Source: Nitrosarchaeum sp. (GTDB lineage: Archaea > Thermoproteota > Nitrososphaeria > Nitrososphaerales > Nitrosopumilaceae). Taken from it: a DNA stretch of 64,000 nucleotides. The translations under genes were made by a program, and so were the position numbers. The DNA is taken from assembly GCA_965223865.1 (NCBI GenBank), contig OZ245020.1, positions 1,504,001 to 1,568,000 on the forward strand, given 5' to 3'. The notes under the pieces were generated by a model that was not told where the DNA came from, did not search any database, and worked only from the letters and a program-made list of their open reading frames with translations. Below, piece after piece: positions 2,300 to 24,024 of the stretch. Every line of letters begins with the position of its first letter. Position 1 is the first letter of the stretch.

Positions 2300-4024
2300 T
2301 TACTTTGAGCGAATTTTGTCATGTATCTGAGCTAGAATCAATTCTGCTTTGTTTTTGTTCTCATAAGTGTCGGAGGTCTCATCCATAATAGTATCAATTT
2401 CATAACTTTTGTCAACTAGAACATTAGCAACATGATCATCAAGCGTACCATTACCTATCAAATAATATGCAAATACAGTATTCATTTGACCAATTCTATG
2501 TAGTCTATCTTCAGCTTGTCTATGAATAGCAGGGCTCCAATCTAATTCTGCAAAAATCACATACTTTGCACGAGTTAAATTAATTCCAACATTTCCTGCA
2601 CGCAGACCTGCAATCATTAGTTTGGATTCACCTCTTTGGAATTTGTCAATTTGATCTTGGCGTAGTTTATCGGTTTGACCTCCAATAATAGATACGGGGG
2701 AAAATTCTGAGAGGCTCTCGTGAAGTAATTTGTGAATGACTTTGTGATGACAAAACACAACTACACTCTCCTCGATTTCCATAATGTTTTTTACAAAATT
2801 GATTACATGCGGAAGTTTGGCAATGCCTGCAATCTGTCTTTCGCTTTGAATTGCTCTCTGGTATGAAGCAGATTTATCAAATGCAGATTCTGCATCTTTT
2901 TGTTCTTCTTCTAATTTTGCCCATATTTTTTCTAGTTCTTCAAAATAATAATCAGTGTCAGAATCAATAACTTCTTTATACCGAACCTTATCTTTTAGCT
3001 CTTTTAGAACATCCGATTTTTTACGTCTTAGCATTACATGCTTTTGTAATTCATTACGAAGAGATGCTCTCTTGTTTTCAAGAACTATGGCCTTTCCTTT
3101 TTCATTTACATAACAGAAATACTCACAAAATTCCTTAAAGCTGCCTAATAGTCCGGGTTTAAGAATATCAACAATAGGCCAAATTTCAGAACCACGATTA
3201 TAAATTGGAGTACCAGATAATCCTATTCTGTAGATAGTAGATGAAAGGGCAGCTAGCTTTTTTACTGCTTTATATTTTTGAGTGGTTTTTGATCGTAAAT
3301 TATGTACTTCATCACAGACTATAGTTTTGATGTTTAATTTTGATAAATCATTCATACGTTTGTAAAGTAATTCATAATTGATTATGTAAAAATCTGTTTT
3401 TGGTAATTCGTCAGATTTTCCTGTTCGAATAATAGTAGAGGTAGGCGATTCAGATTCTAATATACGTCCATTTCTACTTTTTTTCTTTACAAATTTTGAG
3501 ATTTCTCTTTCCCAATTGTTCAGAGTTACTAGTGGAGCAACTACAAGTACAGGAAAGGTTTGTTTTTCTGTTGCGACATATGATAATGTTTGGACTGTTT
3601 TTCCAAGACCCATTTCATCGGCAAGTAAAGCATTACCAGAAGATTTTAACAGAAAATCTAATCCCTCTTTTTGAAAATTAAGTAATTTTCCTCTAAACTG
3701 CGTTCCAGGTTTTGCTTTTTTTAATTTATGTTTGACTGGAGGCAAAGCGGGTTTTGGAGCAAATGTTTTTACAATTTTTCTCTGCCAAGCAGTTTTTGAT
3801 AATATTTCAAGAGGATATCTATCCATAATCAATTTTATCTGCTTTACACTTTCAGAACTATCAGGAATAATTACTTCATTGATGTTTTCTCCATACCATG
3901 CTTCAGGCACTAGCCTGGAAATCATACTAACGGCTCTCTCTCCGGTAACTTTCCAGCTCCAAATTTTTGAATATTTATCTAGAACATATTCAAGTGTCCC
4001 AAAGTTTTCTATGGTTGCTTCCAT
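2300..4024 (-). CDS. SNF2-family helicase/ATPase (HARP-like)
   Basis: LLADEMGLGKT, DEVH, LSGTP and QAEDRLHRIGQ motifs. Confidence 0.93.
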   Translation of the reverse strand: MEATIENFGTLEYVLDKYSKIWSWKVTGERAVSMISRLVPEAWYGENINEVIIPDSSESVKQIKLIMDRYPLEILSKTAWQRKIVKTFAPKPALPPVKHKLKKAKPGTQFRGKLLNFQKEGLDFLLKSSGNALLADEMGLGKTVQTLSYVATEKQTFPVLVVAPLVTLNNWEREISKFVKKKSRNGRILESESPTSTIIRTGKSDELPKTDFYIINYELLYKRMNDLSKLNIKTIVCDEVHNLRSKTTQKYKAVKKLAALSSTIYRIGLSGTPIYNRGSEIWPIVDILKPGLLGSFKEFCEYFCYVNEKGKAIVLENKRASLRNELQKHVMLRRKKSDVLKELKDKVRYKEVIDSDTDYYFEELEKIWAKLEEEQKDAESAFDKSASYQRAIQSERQIAGIAKLPHVINFVKNIMEIEESVVVFCHHKVIHKLLHESLSEFSPVSIIGGQTDKLRQDQIDKFQRGESKLMIAGLRAGNVGINLTRAKYVIFAELDWSPAIHRQAEDRLHRIGQMNTVFAYYLIGNGTLDDHVANVLVDKSYEIDTIMDETSDTYENKNKAELILAQIHDKIRSK

Positions 4025-4176
4025 AATTTGTCGATTGGACGTTTTTTTGACTTATGAATCTTCATGTTTTAATCGATCATTGGAGATGATCAGTAAAAAG
4101 GACAATAGTTAAAATAGAACAATATTACTACGACTTTGCTGAAATTTTCAGTTCTCCATATTAGAAAATTAGATGT

Positions 4177-4311
4177 TTAATGAGGTTTGTCTACTGGATG
4201 AGGCTCTGTATTTTCATCATGACAATCACAACTGCAAAGATGAGTAGAATGATTATTTAAGCAATCAATGCATTCATAATGCTTTCTTGTTTCACACGCA
4301 CCGCAAATCAT
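4177..4311 (-). CDS. Cys/His-rich microprotein (44 aa)
   Basis: Manual translation MICGACETRKHYECIDCLNNHSTHLCSCDCHDENTEPHPVDKPH*; same Cys/His pattern as the ORFs at 55571 and 60863. Confidence 0.7.
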   Translation of the reverse strand: MICGACETRKHYECIDCLNNHSTHLCSCDCHDENTEPHPVDKPH

Positions 4312-4365
4312 ATCCTGTATGTAATTTGTAATAGAAAGATTTGAATTTTTTCTATGTTATTATTC

Positions 4366-5025
4366 CTAATACTCTACTTCACTTCTCTGAAGAAGGCTTC
4401 CAGTAAGATCCACATATCCTTGGGGATCTAGTTCTTTGGCGAAATTTTTGTCAATATTGATTAGATAAATTGAATGCAGATGAGCATTTAAAATGTCATC
4501 ACATTCTATGGGGGGGTTTTTGTAATATCTATCACAAAGAGTCTTTACTTTTTTGACCTCAGATTCTTTTCTGGCATTTGGAGGCAGAAGGAAAATTTTT
4601 GGAATTGGAATAAGACCTATTACAGGTGTTGCCAATGAAAATTTTGTGCAGAACTGACTATATCTGGCAATTTTACTCATGATTCTTGCAGTATAGTAGT
4701 CAATTGTATCCATTGCATGATCAGGAGGAGTAAACCCTGTTTCAATTTCAATAATGGTGTTTCCGCCACCTTTCTTTGCAAATATATCACAAACTAAAAT
4801 ATCAGATACTTGTTTTTCCACCTCTACGGCATATCCACGAGCAATAAGATTTGAGGCACATATCAATTCCAAAACAGAATGATTAATTTTTACCAGATTT
4901 TTTTGATACATTTCAATTAGTTGATGTCTCACATAATTTAGTTTAGGCAAATTGTTTTCAGATAAATTTTCTGATAACCTATCAGTGACCTCATATACAT
5001 CGTTGCGGAATTTTTCTAAATCCAT
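4366..5025 (-). CDS. conserved hypothetical protein, possible PD-(D/E)XK fold
   Basis: 219 aa; CDIFAKK...IIEIETG pattern. Confidence 0.7.
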   Translation of the reverse strand: MDLEKFRNDVYEVTDRLSENLSENNLPKLNYVRHQLIEMYQKNLVKINHSVLELICASNLIARGYAVEVEKQVSDILVCDIFAKKGGGNTIIEIETGFTPPDHAMDTIDYYTARIMSKIARYSQFCTKFSLATPVIGLIPIPKIFLLPPNARKESEVKKVKTLCDRYYKNPPIECDDILNAHLHSIYLINIDKNFAKELDPQGYVDLTGSLLQRSEVEY

Positions 5026-9696: not shown

Positions 9697-10110
9697 TCAC
9701 ACAATTGAAAGGTTTACGGAATTTGCGTTACTATCCCATGCAAAGATGTCATTTTCAGAATAGGGAGACTTTACAATAAGGGATACCAATCCAAAAAAAT
9801 TATGAAGATCAGTCACCGAAGGTTTTTCAGAACCACTAGGATGAGAATGGACAATTCCAACATAGCTGAGATCAAATGGCAAAAAAGAATGAGGAAACCC
9901 AGCGAAAGTAGGGCCAGTATAATTAAAGGGTGGAATTACCAACCCATTTACCATAATATGGCCATGTTTTGATTTTCCTTTTAAAATAAGTATTCCTTCG
10001 TTTGGGTGCTTCATTTGACAATAAGACAAAATGCTATCTAAAACATCCCGTTTAAGTGAGACTTTTCTTTCAATTTTTTTCTTTTTAAATAACATGTAGA
10101 GATTTTGCAT
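9697..10110 (-). CDS. JAMM/MPN+ metalloprotease
   Basis: HPNE plus HSHP-x6-S-x2-D motif. Confidence 0.88.
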   Translation of the reverse strand: MQNLYMLFKKKKIERKVSLKRDVLDSILSYCQMKHPNEGILILKGKSKHGHIMVNGLVIPPFNYTGPTFAGFPHSFLPFDLSYVGIVHSHPSGSEKPSVTDLHNFFGLVSLIVKSPYSENDIFAWDSNANSVNLSIV

Positions 10111-10116
10111 ACAGTG

Positions 10117-11403
10117 CTAATTAATTTTAAGATTTTTTTCCACAATATATCGTGTGTTTGAGAATTTTTGCAATTTAGATTCAATGTCCATTAACAATTC
10201 AGGAATTTTAGAACGGACCTGAATCATATCGTTTTCAAAGGTAATTATTTTTTGATTCTGATCCTCTTTTTGCTGGATTGCTTTTTCTAGAGTTTGTTCA
10301 ATTTCTAATAATTTGTGTCTATCAAATGAATTAATTTGGTTTTCAATGTTTTGAATTTTTCCTTTAAAATTATCTACTTGTTTTATGAATGAATCAAGCA
10401 TCTCAATTGTTTCTGTAATTTGAGACATTGATTTATCTACATCTTTAACAGAAATAGAACCTGAAAGAATTTCTTTTCGCACATTTTCTAGGATAATTAT
10501 TATCAAGTCTTTGTTTTTTGTTGCAAGTACGTCGATTGGATCTGCAACTAGCTTCATCAACAAATTTTTTTGTTCTTTATCTGAGGAGATATACTCGTAT
10601 CTTCCCATTGGTCGAGAAATTTTTGTAAATTGTGAATCAATTTGATTTTTAATTTGGGGTTTTTCAGAATTTATTTTTTCCAATGATTGTTTTAATTTAA
10701 GAAACTCACTGTATTCTTTTGAAGATTTTATTTTTTCAATAGATTCCTTAATAGAAATAATTTTGTTTTCTTGTGATTTCATTTCTATTTTTAATTCTGA
10801 GATTCTTTGTTCTTTGTGTTTTATTTCATTTTCAGAATTTGTAATTGATTTTATCAAATCATTAATTTCCTCAGAAGTGATTTTTGTATCTTCATAATTT
10901 TTTATTAATTGTTGAATTTCAGAATGGTAAGAATTCATTTGAGCAAGAATATCTTTGAGTTTACTGGCATATTTTTTTGCAAAAATATGAATTACTCGTG
11001 TTTGTCTTCCTAAAACATCACCAATTTTTTTTAGTGTTTGATTTAAAGTATAATTTAGATTTATTACATCTTCAAAGGTAGATACTTTTGGTAAGTTAGA
11101 TACGTCTTTTTTTATGACATTAATTACTTGTTTTTTCCCTCTTATGACAATAATTCCGAGATGCCTGTCAATATCATCAACATCAAGGTTATCTTTTTCT
11201 AAATTTTGTCCAATTTTAATTAAATCATTAATTAATGGATCTGTTTTATCTCGCAAGTATTTGATTTCAGCTAATGTTTGAGTAGTTCGCAGGTGAAGAA
11301 TTTCATCAACAACTTTAGGAACTTCGTGAAGAGAGATGTTTTTCTGTAGAGGAATTTCTTCAGGCCTCTTTTCTTCTTTCTTCTTTCCCCATCCAAAGAC
11401 CAT
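10117..11403 (-). CDS. long coiled-coil protein
   Basis: 428 aa, heptad-rich, no NTPase motif. Confidence 0.75.
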   Translation of the reverse strand: MVFGWGKKKEEKRPEEIPLQKNISLHEVPKVVDEILHLRTTQTLAEIKYLRDKTDPLINDLIKIGQNLEKDNLDVDDIDRHLGIIVIRGKKQVINVIKKDVSNLPKVSTFEDVINLNYTLNQTLKKIGDVLGRQTRVIHIFAKKYASKLKDILAQMNSYHSEIQQLIKNYEDTKITSEEINDLIKSITNSENEIKHKEQRISELKIEMKSQENKIISIKESIEKIKSSKEYSEFLKLKQSLEKINSEKPQIKNQIDSQFTKISRPMGRYEYISSDKEQKNLLMKLVADPIDVLATKNKDLIIIILENVRKEILSGSISVKDVDKSMSQITETIEMLDSFIKQVDNFKGKIQNIENQINSFDRHKLLEIEQTLEKAIQQKEDQNQKIITFENDMIQVRSKIPELLMDIESKLQKFSNTRYIVEKNLKIN

Positions 11404-20128: not shown

Positions 20129-20446
20129 ATGGCAAAAGTAAACTCTAGCATGAGATCTATAAAAAAGAATTCAAGAACATATTCAGATTCTTCTAAAATC
20201 AAATGTCCTACATGTGGCTGTGATTCGATTTTCAATATTGATGGGGCAACATCTGGTTTTTTGTATAATTATAATTATGAATTCAAGGGCTATGGAAATT
20301 ATTCTTTTAGTCAAGAAATTATCAAAGTTCAAAAATGCCCTACATGTGACAAATTGAGATTATTCACACCGGATGGTCCTTTATCTCATTCAAAGTTCAT
20401 AGAAATAAAAAAGAAAGTAGAAAAAATAATATCAGAATACAAATAA
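20129..20446 (+). CDS. zinc-ribbon hypothetical protein
   Basis: CPTCG...CPTCD. Confidence 0.65.
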   Translation: MAKVNSSMRSIKKNSRTYSDSSKIKCPTCGCDSIFNIDGATSGFLYNYNYEFKGYGNYSFSQEIIKVQKCPTCDKLRLFTPDGPLSHSKFIEIKKKVEKIISEYK

Positions 20447-20482: not shown

Positions 20483-21904
20483 TCAAATTTTTGTAAATGT
20501 GATTTGAAACCCATCTGGGGTATTACCTGAAAATTGAGTATACGAATGATTCTGTACGGTTATTACATAATTCCATGGAAGTGATCCATTTAACATTCCT
20601 TGTAATCGTAGAATCTTGTTTTGTTGATCAAATTGCCAATATCCGTTTATAATTGATCTTTGATTTAATGCCTGCTCAAGCAAATCAACATAAAATTCAC
20701 CTGCCGGACTAAATTGTACTTGTCCTACACTACCAGTTAAATTATTGATAGAGAAATTCCAACTTCCAATTGGACTAAAGACAGTGGGAGTGGGCGTAGG
20801 TTCAAATTTGTTAATTTGAGAAGGTTCAGATGTCTGTGAATCTTTAATTTTTGATATGTTATCTGCGATTTCTTCTTCTAATTTACCTCCAAATTTTTCT
20901 AACAACCCTCTTAATGTTATGCTGGGAGTTTTATTGACATCTGTTTTTCGTTTTTTGGTTTCTTGTTTGGGTGCTAATTGTTGTTTGTTCATTTGCTTTT
21001 GAACTAATTCTTCTATAATCGATTTTACTGAAGATTTATCAATCTTATTTCCCATTTGTTCCTCAACTACTTTTTTGACTATCTTTTCAATAGTATCAGA
21101 ATCAACAGCATTTCCTTGGTTTGGTTTTGCTAAACTGGGATATTCGGCAAGAAAGATATCCCCACTTCCGTCAACTTTTCTTGTAGGTCTTTGATCTTGT
21201 GAGAAATCCAGCATTTTTTCATACACATAATTTCCCAAAGAATGTGGTGTGACATAACCGTCTTTATCAACTGCCGATGAATTAGAACCATTCAAACCAT
21301 TATTGATGTGATAAGTAAAGACACTATAGGAGTTATCTTTTTTTGCAAACGACTCTTGAGAGCCAAGAGATGAGGCCAACACATAACGCCCTTCACCTTC
21401 TTGCTTGAAACTATCTTCAATCTTTCTTTTTCCAATCAGTGCCTTAGATTTTTCATCTCCTTTGCTTGGAACATCTAGCGCACCACTATAGCAGCAATCA
21501 ATGATTTTTACTATCTTTGTGGAGTTACTATTCCGGGATATTTTTGAAAGATCATCATAACTATAGCCTTCAAGATCTGGTTTATCAGCCCTTGTTTCAG
21601 AGGTTACAAAATAGTAATCATTTCGTCCATGGGGGACCCCATGTCCTGAATAATATAACAATAATGTATCATTAGAATTTACATCATCTCCTCTAAAAAA
21701 TTTCTTGATAGCTTTTGTCATTTCGTAATGATCTATTCGTCCTATTAGCTTTCTTTCAGGTGGAATTTCAAATCCTATTTTTTTGAGAGTTTTAAACATT
21801 AATTCACCATCATTTTTTACAAAATCTAAATTTGGAAAGTGATCGTATTTACTAATTGCAACTATCATAGCTTTTTTTCTGTCTTGCTTTTCTGTTTTAG
21901 ACAT
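20483..21904 (-). CDS. caspase-like protease (peptidase C14) with C-terminal beta-barrel domain
   Basis: LLYYSGHG and IIDCCYSG catalytic dyad; helical linker; beta-rich C-terminus starting PIGSW. Confidence 0.9.
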   Translation of the reverse strand: MSKTEKQDRKKAMIVAISKYDHFPNLDFVKNDGELMFKTLKKIGFEIPPERKLIGRIDHYEMTKAIKKFFRGDDVNSNDTLLLYYSGHGVPHGRNDYYFVTSETRADKPDLEGYSYDDLSKISRNSNSTKIVKIIDCCYSGALDVPSKGDEKSKALIGKRKIEDSFKQEGEGRYVLASSLGSQESFAKKDNSYSVFTYHINNGLNGSNSSAVDKDGYVTPHSLGNYVYEKMLDFSQDQRPTRKVDGSGDIFLAEYPSLAKPNQGNAVDSDTIEKIVKKVVEEQMGNKIDKSSVKSIIEELVQKQMNKQQLAPKQETKKRKTDVNKTPSITLRGLLEKFGGKLEEEIADNISKIKDSQTSEPSQINKFEPTPTPTVFSPIGSWNFSINNLTGSVGQVQFSPAGEFYVDLLEQALNQRSIINGYWQFDQQNKILRLQGMLNGSLPWNYVITVQNHSYTQFSGNTPDGFQITFTKI

Positions 21905-22022
21905 TATCTAGATCATGTTTGTTTTATCAAGAATTAATTATTTTCCAAAAAAATTCAAAATCATCATTTATGAGAGAACAAGTAAATGCTGACTTTTAAT
22001 AGTTTGATTTGGAGTCTATACT

Positions 22023-22289
22023 ATGTCTGAAGAGAACAAAGTGGAATTACTCTTCTCCAAAGAAGGAATACCCACAGACACAGGATACCAAAGTAAAGGT
22101 CTCATGGAAAATAAGTTTAAGGGATTTTCCACATCTGTTGATAAAATAATTCAGCGATTTGACAAATATCAAGTTGAATCTATAGAATTATGGATACAAG
22201 CTGCTGCAGAAACAGATGGAATCCTCAAACTTCTAGTTAGTGCCAAAGGTGAAGGAGGAATGAAAATTACTTTAACCCCAAAAAATTAG
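22023..22289 (+). CDS. Pepco/Trypco-like peptidase-associated small protein
   Basis: 88 aa: helix followed by VESIELWIQAAAETDG...SAKGEGGMKITLTP amphipathic beta-hairpin; divergent from the caspase. Confidence 0.65.
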   Translation: MSEENKVELLFSKEGIPTDTGYQSKGLMENKFKGFSTSVDKIIQRFDKYQVESIELWIQAAAETDGILKLLVSAKGEGGMKITLTPKN

Positions 22290-22364
22290 ATCAAATCTTT
22301 ATTTTTTTATTTTTCTATTAAGATATAATCACGTAAACAATATTCATTAATTTTGTTACCATAA

Positions 22365-22520: not shown

Positions 22521-22632
22521 AACATTTACTCAGAAACACATTCTAATAAATTTAAAAAAAATTAGAGAATATAATCTCAAAAATTGATTAAAAAATTTAC
22601 AATCTATAATTTAAAATTAATCAAATTTTCAC

Positions 22633-22863
22633 TTACCCTACTTTCTCACTGTAATGATACCTTAGAATATTTTTCATCAAAGGATAGTAAATCTCATTGG
22701 ATTTGTGAGATGATTTGCTGTGAGATAATAGCTTTTCACAGTACTGTCTCTCCTCTGCAGTTAACTGCGATGAATGCAGATAGTTTTTCTTTGCAGCCAA
22801 ATCATACAAGAATGAATAGTATTCTTGGAGTATCTCTTTTTCTTTTACTTCTAATAGACTCAT
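22633..22863 (-). CDS. hypothetical protein
   Basis: 76-aa ORF with ATG start. Confidence 0.55.
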   Translation of the reverse strand: MSLLEVKEKEILQEYYSFLYDLAAKKNYLHSSQLTAEERQYCEKLLSHSKSSHKSNEIYYPLMKNILRYHYSEKVG

Positions 22864-22929
22864 TTGTATTTCAAAAGTGTCATTGCAGACAAATTATTTA
22901 GGACGTATCTTACTTTTTGATTATTCTAG

Positions 22930-22975
22930 GTTCAAGATTTGAATTTTTTTAACTAGTTTAGTTCAATTTTTGAAC
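22930..22975. promoter_or_regulatory. pair of 15-bp palindromic boxes upstream of the Lrp gene
   Basis: GTTCAagattTGAAT (22930) and GTTCAattttTGAAC (22961), 31 bp apart. Confidence 0.6.
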
Positions 22976-23012
22976 ATCTGTGGGTATCTTTGCAATATGA
23001 GACTGAATAAAC

Positions 23013-23618
23013 ATGACTATGGCACAAACACTTTCCAAAAATAACATCATAATTGATGATATTGACAGACAAATTCTAAACTTGTTGATTTCAAATGCAA
23101 GAGATTCAACTAGAACTATTGTAAAGAAACTAGCAGGCATGGGAGTAAACATGTCTGAACGAGGCATAGGTAAGAGAATAGCACGACTAGAAAAACTAGG
23201 CATAATTCATGGCTATACCACAATGGTTGATCTCAATCAGGTAAACATGCCAATTTTGAGACTAGTTACTGTGAAATTTACATCTCCAAAAGACTTTGTA
23301 ACCAGACTAGAAGAGATGAAAGAGTATCTAAATGACGCACCATACTGTGACTTTTCAGCAAGAACAAATGGGAATATTGACTGGATTGAGCTGAAATTTT
23401 TCAACAATCACGAGCAGGCAAAACAAGAAGAGGATTTGTATCGAGCATGGTTTGGAGATATCATAGAAGATTACAGATCATATGACCTTGACATCCATAA
23501 AATGGGATGGCAGTTATTTGATGAGGATGATTTTAATCGGTTTATCCAAAATATGTGTAAAAGGGAAGGCTCAGAAACCTGTCCAAACATTAAACTCCAA
23601 ACTAGGAAAAAACACTAG
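23013..23618 (+). CDS. full-length Lrp/AsnC transcriptional regulator
   Basis: IDDIDRQIL...NAR...RIARLEKLGIIHGY HTH plus RAM domain. Confidence 0.88.
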   Translation: MTMAQTLSKNNIIIDDIDRQILNLLISNARDSTRTIVKKLAGMGVNMSERGIGKRIARLEKLGIIHGYTTMVDLNQVNMPILRLVTVKFTSPKDFVTRLEEMKEYLNDAPYCDFSARTNGNIDWIELKFFNNHEQAKQEEDLYRAWFGDIIEDYRSYDLDIHKMGWQLFDEDDFNRFIQNMCKREGSETCPNIKLQTRKKH

Positions 23619-23630
23619 ATAGGCACACAA

Positions 23631-23675
23631 ATTCATTTTCTGAACTGCTCTAAGAGCTCAATTCAGTTTCTGAAT
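23631..23675. promoter_or_regulatory. second pair of the same 15-bp boxes
   Basis: ATTCAttttcTGAAC (23631) and ATTCAgtttcTGAAT (23661), 30 bp apart. Confidence 0.6.
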
Positions 23676-23740
23676 AAAATGATACGATATAGTTTGCTCC
23701 ATTTCAAGTAGTTTGACAGCTACATATCATTTGAGAAAAC

Positions 23741-23959
23741 ATGAGTACCTATGATATACAACAAGTCTCTGAGAATACAAAGACAAAACTCGGAGTAATC
23801 GGTCTAGTTGCCTTACCGATAGTTGCAGCAATGTATTCCTCTGGAAGCATGGCCCTAGAACAAGTACCTCAAACACTCACAAGCGGAGTATTTCCAATTG
23901 GGTTTACCTTGTTCTCATGGGGTATTGCTGTGAAATTGGCAACAAAGTTGAGAAAGTAA
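23741..23959 (+). CDS. small two-TM membrane protein
   Basis: 72 aa with two hydrophobic segments, followed by a T-tract. Confidence 0.7.
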   Translation: MSTYDIQQVSENTKTKLGVIGLVALPIVAAMYSSGSMALEQVPQTLTSGVFPIGFTLFSWGIAVKLATKLRK

Positions 23960-24024
23960 TTACTTTTTCAATTTTTTTGTGATTAATTGTTGTGTTAATT
24001 GTCTGGAAATTATAAACAGGGATT

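Follow-up and report, generated by a model that had tools for sequence, protein, structure and literature searches.

A caspase-family protease and its conserved small neighbour in a Nitrosarchaeum genome: a candidate protease-gated cell-death or dormancy module

We analysed a 64,000-nucleotide stretch of the Nitrosarchaeum sp. assembly GCA_965223865.1 (contig OZ245020.1, positions 1,504,001 to 1,568,000), hereafter the window, and within it a pair of genes that may form a two-gene conflict module. The first (20483..21904, minus strand) encodes a C14 caspase-family protease of 473 amino acids (aa), and the second (22023..22289, plus strand) is an open reading frame (ORF) of 88 aa. Both genes are divergent and separated by a spacer of 118 bp (21905..22022), which presumably holds the two promoters and has a length of 114-159 bp in close relatives. 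An initial annotation of this DNA had described the same divergent layout with exact coordinates, and had proposed that the protease releases a pore former by cleaving the small protein.

Regarding the protease, residues 9-208 match the Pfam family Peptidase_C14 (PF00656) with an E-value of 1.1e-18 and 68.2 bits, against a cut-off of 21.4, and this is the single match to the family in its own genome. The catalytic domain extends over residues 9-231 (21212..21880, minus strand). We aligned the protease with ten relatives and found His88, in the motif SGHG (codon at 21641..21643, minus strand), and Cys138, in the motif DCCYSG (codon at 21491..21493, minus strand), to be invariant in 11 of 11 sequences. 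The same is true of Asp136, two residues ahead of Cys138, while C137 is replaced by Ser in two of the 11. These results bear out the C14 protease with an intact His/Cys dyad of the initial annotation, and a score over the cut-off together with the dyad is what would be expected of an active Peptidase C14 enzyme. The D-C-C-x-S-G motif presumably resembles the pocket of metacaspases specific for basic residues. The nearest named subfamily, and best NCBIfam match, is NF047832, 'caspase, EACC1-associated type', with 114.8 bits against a cut-off of 140.

Beyond the catalytic domain, a charged and presumably helical linker (20990..21091, minus strand) holds two similar 13-residue motifs, IEKIVKKVVEEQM at residues 272-284 and VKSIIEELVQKQM at residues 293-305, and the stretch with both of them is conserved among close homologues. 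The duplicated helical linker that had been claimed here stands as far as the presence of both motifs is concerned, but they are identical at only 4 of 13 positions and, hence, 'duplicated' is a weak statement. The protease ends in a domain that AlphaFold2 models as an eight-stranded beta-barrel (residues 370-473; 20486..20797, minus strand) with a predicted local distance difference test (pLDDT) of 93.2. By VIA-align, this barrel of 104 residues reached Z scores of 11.6 to designed beta-barrels, 10.9 to ToxS and 10.2-10.3 to the lipocalin-like proteins 4qrl and 3hty, with 89-97 of the 104 residues aligned, and Foldseek gave a best E-value of 4.6e-4. According to these matches, the lipocalin-like C-terminal domain noticed earlier holds at the level of a predicted lipocalin-like or calycin fold, with no ligand implied. 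An Atlas feature search, taken as a lead only, agrees with this fold. We detected no sequence family for the domain, which was found in around ten closely related archaeal caspases and nowhere else. Its best structural matches include two barrels that sense bile salts, ToxS and VtrC, which makes a small-molecule signal conceivable; a modelled fold shared with them does not show a shared function, and we consider the barrel a candidate input domain.

The 88-aa ORF is, judging by the conservation of its sequence, a real gene. It has 26 close homologues, those named being from Nitrosarchaeum, and its start Met is invariant in 24 aligned sequences. Using a profile of 24 close homologues against 1.84 billion proteins, we retrieved 225 representatives with E<=1e-3, of which 110 had E<=1e-10. 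The family has three features, namely an N-terminal strand motif (h-E/Q-L-h-F-P), a variable linker and the motif F..Y.V.SIELWI.G..ET.G..KL.VSAKGEGG.K..LKPK. It has no Pfam or NCBIfam model: an NCBIfam scan of 100 members gave no recurrent family (none in more than 2 of the 100), and a word-indexed search with a broad profile, A2, returned 53 proteins, none of them with a precomputed Pfam domain. The identification of the ORF as PbeC by PADLOC (E 0.02) was weak and we regarded it as noise. In many of the distant relatives (P0106, P0117, P0119, P0129, P0133 and others) we observed a hydrophobic, signal-peptide-like N-terminal segment, a sign that the family may include exported or periplasmic forms.

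The AlphaFold2 monomer model of the small protein (100-row alignment, pLDDT 72) has a conserved N-terminal strand at residues 6-11 (VELLFS; 22038..22055, plus strand), a disordered segment at residues 15-32 with pLDDT below 50, and short helices at 29-32 and 39-45. Its C-terminal half (residues 49-86; 22167..22280, plus strand) is formed by strands 49-56, 58-64, 67-72 and 80-86 around the invariant SAKGEGG turn. The initial annotation had the ORF ending in one long Gly/Ala hairpin; the ORF itself is confirmed, but the four strands make two hairpins. We found no similar solved structure, either with Foldseek against the PDB (nothing at E<=0.001) or with a wide VIA-align search (best Z 2.7). A four-copy multimer prediction with alignment A2 gave ipSAE values of 0.23 and 0.25 (mark, 0.42), which weigh neither for nor against ring formation. 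By counting residues in 49 unique near-full-length proteins among 65 aligned, we found a basic residue (K or R) at position 25 in 48 and G at position 26 in 43. This K/R25-G26 pair (22095..22100, plus strand), whose K25 is the K of the QSKG motif in which the initial annotation had placed a possible cut, is the single conserved pair in an otherwise variable, disordered linker. The window protein ends one residue after K87, and the tails of its relatives have around 0-6 residues.

Our strongest result is the conserved linkage of the small protein to clan-CD peptidases. We scanned metagenome contigs with a 20-sequence alignment, A5, and obtained 73 loci holding a relative of the small protein, which include short contigs and near-duplicates and sample the SAKGEGG subfamily only, because the narrower A5 replaced the too-diverse A2. 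C14 caspases, identified with a local hidden Markov model (HMM) of the caspase domain, were present in 48 of the 73 loci and lay within 600 bp of the small gene in 46, the remaining two being at 1.1 and 3.5 kb. Among the 46 close pairs, 24 are divergent, 21 are in tandem with the small gene first and one is convergent, so that the divergent layout, previously thought unusual, turns out to be common within the family. From the 25 loci without a C14 match we scanned the neighbours in 19. A CHAT peptidase adjoined the small gene in four of the 25, and another locus had TIR_2 and an integrase nearby; among the others, many were contigs with under 1 kb of flank. The small ORF is, according to these counts, a genuine partner of clan-CD peptidases.

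We also examined ten loci from species genomes, nine distinct genomes in all (L009 and G165 are the same). A caspase adjoins the small gene in L008 and L009, that is, in one Nitrosarchaeum and one Nitrosopumilus genome. Among the Nitrososphaeraceae, a frameshifted caspase adjoins it in L011, probably one does in L015, and one lies 2.3 kb away in L017. Several neighbours deserve mention on their own. In L034 (956-1852) a separate, divergent SIR2_2 gene neighbours the small gene on a contig with no caspase, and in L068 (1406-3010) SIR2_2 is fused behind the caspase domain of a protease linked to the small protein. Just beyond the caspase of L008 (Nitrosarchaeum sp. LAS73) there are two ORFs of 144 and 168 aa (2977-4380) that, by the impression given by their sequences, look like phage or contractile tail-tube proteins. 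In the Nitrosopumilaceae genome G094 (L006 7163-8559; G094:C1, around 930.2-931.6 kb), an 89-aa homologue of the small protein overlaps the stop codon of a PF00149 gene encoding a calcineurin-like metallophosphoesterase, and a search of this genome at E<=1e-10 gave no caspase of the type. A metallophosphoesterase is listed among protease-associated proteins in Evans 2025 (10.1101/2025.11.14.688446).

All 19 metagenome partner ORFs that we scanned start with Peptidase_C14. Their C-termini carry TPR in eight cases and NHL in four, and have nothing recognised in seven; pentapeptide, PKD/Big_9/cadherin, Big_5 and SIR2_2 appeared in single cases, and one partner caspase has an ATPase-like tail of 1578 aa. 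A small non-enzymatic protein beside a serine or cysteine peptidase fused to sensor domains is a trait of Pepco, and pairing with a protein whose caspase domain comes first and whose C-terminus varies is a trait of EACC1; both are seen here. As judged from these sequences, the pattern of a constant small protein and a caspase with variable C-terminus matches those in Kaur 2020 (PMC7159879) and Evans 2025, and the gene arrangement resembles in particular the EACC1-caspase 'System 4' of Kaur 2020, where a small constant gene also lies beside a caspase-first gene with a variable end. The link to EACC1 is also seen in the caspases themselves. NF047832 was the best named match for all 21 C14 partner caspases that we tested, among them that of the window, with matches spanning profile positions 2 to around 208 of 211; their scores varied from 104 to 132 bits, so that none reached the cut-off of 140. 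By tblastn with the window caspase domain we found caspases on actinobacterial plasmids, and the small ORF or stretch just upstream of them matched EACC1 over its cut-off in four of five records and below it in the fifth. The EACC1 genes just upstream of these plasmid caspases confirm the protease as a sister of the EACC1-associated type.

The pair is sparsely distributed. Our searches detected the small gene in only four of the 201 family genomes covered, and in three of 401 from the phylum. In the nearest genome of the same genus, G030, which is around 88% identical in the flanks, 1,634 bp of the window (20729..22362) are replaced by 4 bp. This deletion takes codons 1-392 of the caspase, the spacer and the whole small ORF, and the 3' remnant of the caspase gene that is left is frameshifted and broken across three reading frames. 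As a single deletion removes both genes, the pair was ancestral to the two genomes and was lost as a unit. Patchy spread, recent loss and shuffled C-termini are hallmarks of conflict systems rather than of housekeeping genes.

We also asked to which known effectors the small protein might be related. Its top Pfam match is Pepco (PF24393), with 13.6 bits and an E-value of 0.096 against a cut-off of 27. Sub-threshold matches to Pepco appeared in 5 of 24 close members and in 6 of 99 representatives, drawn without fragments from the 149 new proteins among 150 listed matches, the best with 18.0 bits. Those to Trypco1 (PF19493) appeared in one of the 24 and four of the 99, with a best score of 17.2 bits against a cut-off of 24.6; the window ORF had no Trypco1 match, and neither the 24 nor the 99 included a relative over the cut-off. 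The Pepco and Trypco1 alignments fall on the C-terminal strands and mostly end at or near the last profile positions. They are the only recurrent kinship signal of the family in Pfam, always below threshold. The NCBIfam scan mentioned above served as the noise control; among the 24 close members, however, ApeA_NTD1, an unrelated family, likewise appears five times. An Atlas feature search, again only a lead, ranked a Trypco1 cluster second and a Pepco cluster third (0.84). By comparing the HMM of the close family (A1) with a bona fide archaeal Trypco1 we obtained the expected register with 3.5 bits and an E-value of 0.005, in a single comparison; all profile comparisons with Trypco1 rest on this one bona fide sequence, from genome G508. 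Chance alone would rarely make the top noise-level match one of the two or three families, out of 24,736, that co-occur with peptidases, so a remote kinship to Pepco/Trypco seems likely. As all scores stay under threshold and the profile comparisons are negative or weak, homology is suggestive only. Thus, the Pepco/Trypco-like effector of the initial annotation retains the one recurrent sub-threshold signal but not membership in either family, and the profile search against these families that it had proposed as a check gave no match over threshold.

The G508 sequence is itself of interest. In this Thermoproteota genome (G508:C142; L107 38-1839), a canonical Trypco1 of 43.6 bits lies 3 bp upstream of an ORF that joins a trypsin-like protease to a P-loop ATPase, so that this archaeon has an Avs-like module. 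It was the only one of the 401 phylum genomes with Trypco1, which was found in none of the five plasmid records, and tblastn of this Trypco1 and its trypsin-like neighbour against the plasmids gave no match. Pepco was over its cut-off in none of the 401 phylum genomes and none of four actinobacterial plasmid records (the fifth, L101, of over 8 Mb, was left out).

Taken together, we read the pair as a module of two genes in which a protease controls cell death or dormancy, of the bacterial-conflict kind, acting by a cut between K25 and G26 and by membrane damage, and give this reading a probability of roughly 0.55. We infer cleavage, its site, pore formation, the trigger and an antiviral role along the following lines. 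The protease would be kept inactive until the barrel, or an oligomerisation driven by it, registers a signal. The activated caspase would then cut its 88-aa partner in the disordered linker, after K25 and before G26, which would remove a 25-residue N-terminal piece with its presumably inhibitory strand. The cut would free a fragment of 63 residues and an estimated ~6.8 kDa, comprising a short helix and four beta-strands with a Gly-rich turn, which could oligomerise via its strands and damage the membrane. We propose cleavage at K25-G26 because the small protein has no C-terminal tail, because its linker has a single conserved pair and because orthocaspases cut after basic residues (PMC6426788). 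A caspase-like protease that cuts its hydrolase partner at conserved Arg-Gly sites is described in Evans 2025.

In this proposal the logic would be EACC1-like and the sequence flavour Pepco-like, and in order to contextualize it we compared the pair with the systems described in Evans 2025. EACC1, a monomer, has an N-terminal piece paired with strands of its C-terminal part, and after cleavage its 7-kDa C-terminal fragment forms membrane pores; here too, removal of an N-terminal strand-bearing piece would free an oligomerising C-terminal fragment of ~7 kDa. The putative cut of our protein is after Lys/Arg, whereas the EACC1-associated caspase is modelled to cut after Asp49 of EACC1, and the gene order in the window is divergent, whereas EACC1 is the 5' gene in tandem. 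The sub-cut-off NF047832 scores of all 21 partner caspases are a further difference. The LcHydrolase/LcCaspase system resembles ours in that a neighbouring effector is cut, or in our case would be cut, between a basic residue and Gly (R-G in that system, K/R-G in ours), and differs in that its effector is an enzyme zymogen cut twice, while the 88-aa protein is non-enzymatic and has one candidate site only. Bacteria are already known to use a protease together with a small pore-former (Kaur 2020; Evans 2025).

The pair can also be set beside the gasdermins. In bacterial gasdermin systems, a neighbour-encoded protease removes an inhibitory piece from a pore-former. Gasdermins are much larger than the 88-aa protein and their inhibitory peptide is C-terminal, and our PDB searches gave the small protein no match in sequence or fold.

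Several results weigh against the gated-module reading. Concerning its kinship to known effectors, the Pepco cut-off was reached by none of the window ORF, the 24 close members and the 99 representatives, and EACC1 (PF19953, cut-off 23.6 bits) had no match to the window ORF at E<=1 or in its whole genome at E<=10. With hhalign, profile A2 gave a 4% probability against five actinobacterial proteins in the EACC1 position (a thin profile, four of them having a PF19953 match and three being over its cut-off), and the family profile gave 0.7% against the one Trypco1 sequence, with which BLASTP found nothing. Regarding the protein itself, it has no hydrophobic transmembrane stretch. PADLOC gave the protease a generic caspase match, and its P1 specificity is uncertain, since the EACC1-associated caspase in Evans 2025 is modelled to cut after Asp. 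As for the gene pairing, the small gene has no adjacent caspase in three Nitrososphaera loci and in G094, G528 and G221. A search at E<=1e-10 in five such genomes (of completeness unknown for two) gave no caspase of the type in four, so either the two genes need not occur together or these copies are orphans. Finally, the genes around the pair are housekeeping-like (glutamine synthetase, thioesterase, methyltransferase, CBS and Usp proteins) and contain no recognisable defence island.

A bolder account would make the small protein the founder of a separate class of caspase-gated pore-formers that has its centre in ammonia-oxidising archaea, with an N-terminal lid that is cut. Kinship with Pepco/Trypco would then hold at the superfamily level only, or be convergence, and activation would run 'backwards' compared with Pepco, by removal of an N-terminal lid strand, through the cut at K25-G26, instead of a C-terminal tail. 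In the form found in the window, a small molecule bound in the barrel would switch the protease on directly, and such a one-polypeptide, metabolite-sensing caspase would guard the archaeon against its viruses. We put this forward tentatively, as a doubtful extension of the gated-module reading.

One could argue that the small protein is not a lethal substrate but a regulator, adaptor or sensor (a pseudo-substrate, an inhibitor or a membrane-associated switch), the real effector being the variable C-terminal domain of the protease or its cellular targets. A similar sensor role has been proposed for EACC1 (Kaur 2020), and the constancy of the small protein beside variable C-termini, some of them with potential effector domains such as the SIR2_2 of L068, would fit it. 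However, most of these C-termini are binding repeats (TPR, NHL, PKD, pentapeptide) or a barrel and not enzymes, and a conserved basic residue followed by a small one, within a disordered linker, agrees with a substrate. Pepco and EACC1, moreover, have been shown experimentally to be toxic after cleavage (Evans 2025). For these reasons we regard a purely regulatory role as unlikely.

That the small protein is simply a canonical Pepco is, in our opinion, somewhat more unlikely still. The sub-threshold matches do align its last strands to the end of the Pepco profile, and its C-terminus is well conserved, with K85 in 42, P86 in 49 and K/R87 in 45 of the 49 unique homologues; activation of Pepco itself is exact to one residue (Evans 2025). 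But position 85 is T in the window protein and its closest relatives and position 87 is S in some, only one residue follows K87 in the window protein, several relatives end exactly at the K of LKPK (P0020, L038, L039, L049 and L050), and the Pfam cut-off is not reached. By contrast, the pre-assembled 9-10-mer barrel of Pepco, constitutive and resistant to denaturation, is activated by loss of a 2-kDa charged, Pro-rich C-terminal tail after a conserved Ile, as described for SsPepco (Evans 2025), and our protein has neither this tail nor the Ile site. It also differs in having archaeal named relatives and in its partner, a caspase of the EACC1-associated kind instead of the trypsin-like Avs4, and its monomer model suggests an N-terminal strand and a disordered K/R-G linker where Pepco has an N-terminal amphipathic helix. 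Likewise, Trypco1 in G508 stands beside a trypsin-like protease, while the partners here are C14 or CHAT. What remains in common with Pepco, Trypco1 and Trypco2 is the strand-rich C-terminal half and, with Pepco/Trypco, the expectation of a protease-licensed membrane toxin.

The pair could also be unrelated to immunity, with the caspase processing a small structural, signalling or stress protein, for instance when nutrients run short or under oxidative stress, or carrying out a regulated cell death in which viruses play no part. Such a role would agree with the missing defence island, with the fact that no viral trigger is known and with the reported link of orthocaspases and metacaspases to stress responses in cyanobacteria and phytoplankton. 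It fits poorly with a gene present in so few genomes, recently deleted with its partner in a close relative, and with C-terminal domains shuffled on a constant protease-partner pair, and comparable bacterial modules are phage-triggered (Evans 2025). We therefore find it improbable. Chance adjacency of an 88-aa ORF unrelated to the protease, which the genomes carrying the small gene alone might recall, is already contradicted by the 46 of 73 loci that have a caspase no more than 600 bp away, in three gene orders, by the four further CHAT neighbours and by the joint deletion in G030, and has practically no likelihood.

We made some additional observations in the surroundings of the pair. An ORF of 105 aa with two CxxC pairs and weak zinc-ribbon matches (20129-20446) is convergent with the caspase gene and stands 36 bp away from the caspase stop codon; being kept in G030, which has lost the pair, it probably does not belong to the module. 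Just downstream of the 88-aa gene, a segment of 1,378 bp (22619-23996) that carries a 76-aa ORF and an ORF with an AsnC-type helix-turn-helix (23013-23618) has a second copy, 100% identical, in the same genome (G000:C1:1717710-1719087). G030 likewise has two copies of this repeat, at around 88% identity, and it may be a mobile or recently duplicated segment. Further away, a Prok-JAB domain ORF (9697-10110, minus strand; PF14464, E 7.1e-11) adjoins a 428-aa ORF without Pfam match (10117-11403, minus strand) in the part of the window with the lowest GC content (27.3% at 10-12 kb). These two may be a separate conflict or ubiquitin-like module.

Regarding novelty, none of the papers searched connects a caspase from Nitrosopumilus, Thaumarchaeota or Nitrososphaeria with a small partner protein; the supplements of Kaur 2020 and Evans 2025 may list homologues. 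What is new here is a small-protein family without a model in any library scanned (Pfam and NCBIfam), concentrated among its named relatives in ammonia-oxidising archaea, together with a predicted activation geometry that would differ from that of Pepco and a lipocalin-like candidate sensor on the protease. With a profile of this family, annotation pipelines could assign a name to at least 225 representatives that at present have none or are called 'hypothetical'. The pair is also compact and testable, with a 473-aa protease and an 88-aa putative substrate with a single predicted cut site, and the natural variety of its sensors (lipocalin-like barrel, TPR, NHL, pentapeptide) would help in finding out to which signals such proteases respond. 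In oceans and soils, ammonia-oxidising archaea count among the most abundant microbes, and to our knowledge little is known of their resistance to viruses. If our reading is true, the logic of a protease-licensed pore-former, described for bacterial Pepco and EACC1 in 2025 and echoing the caspase-gasdermin pair of animals, would reach the ammonia-oxidising archaea.

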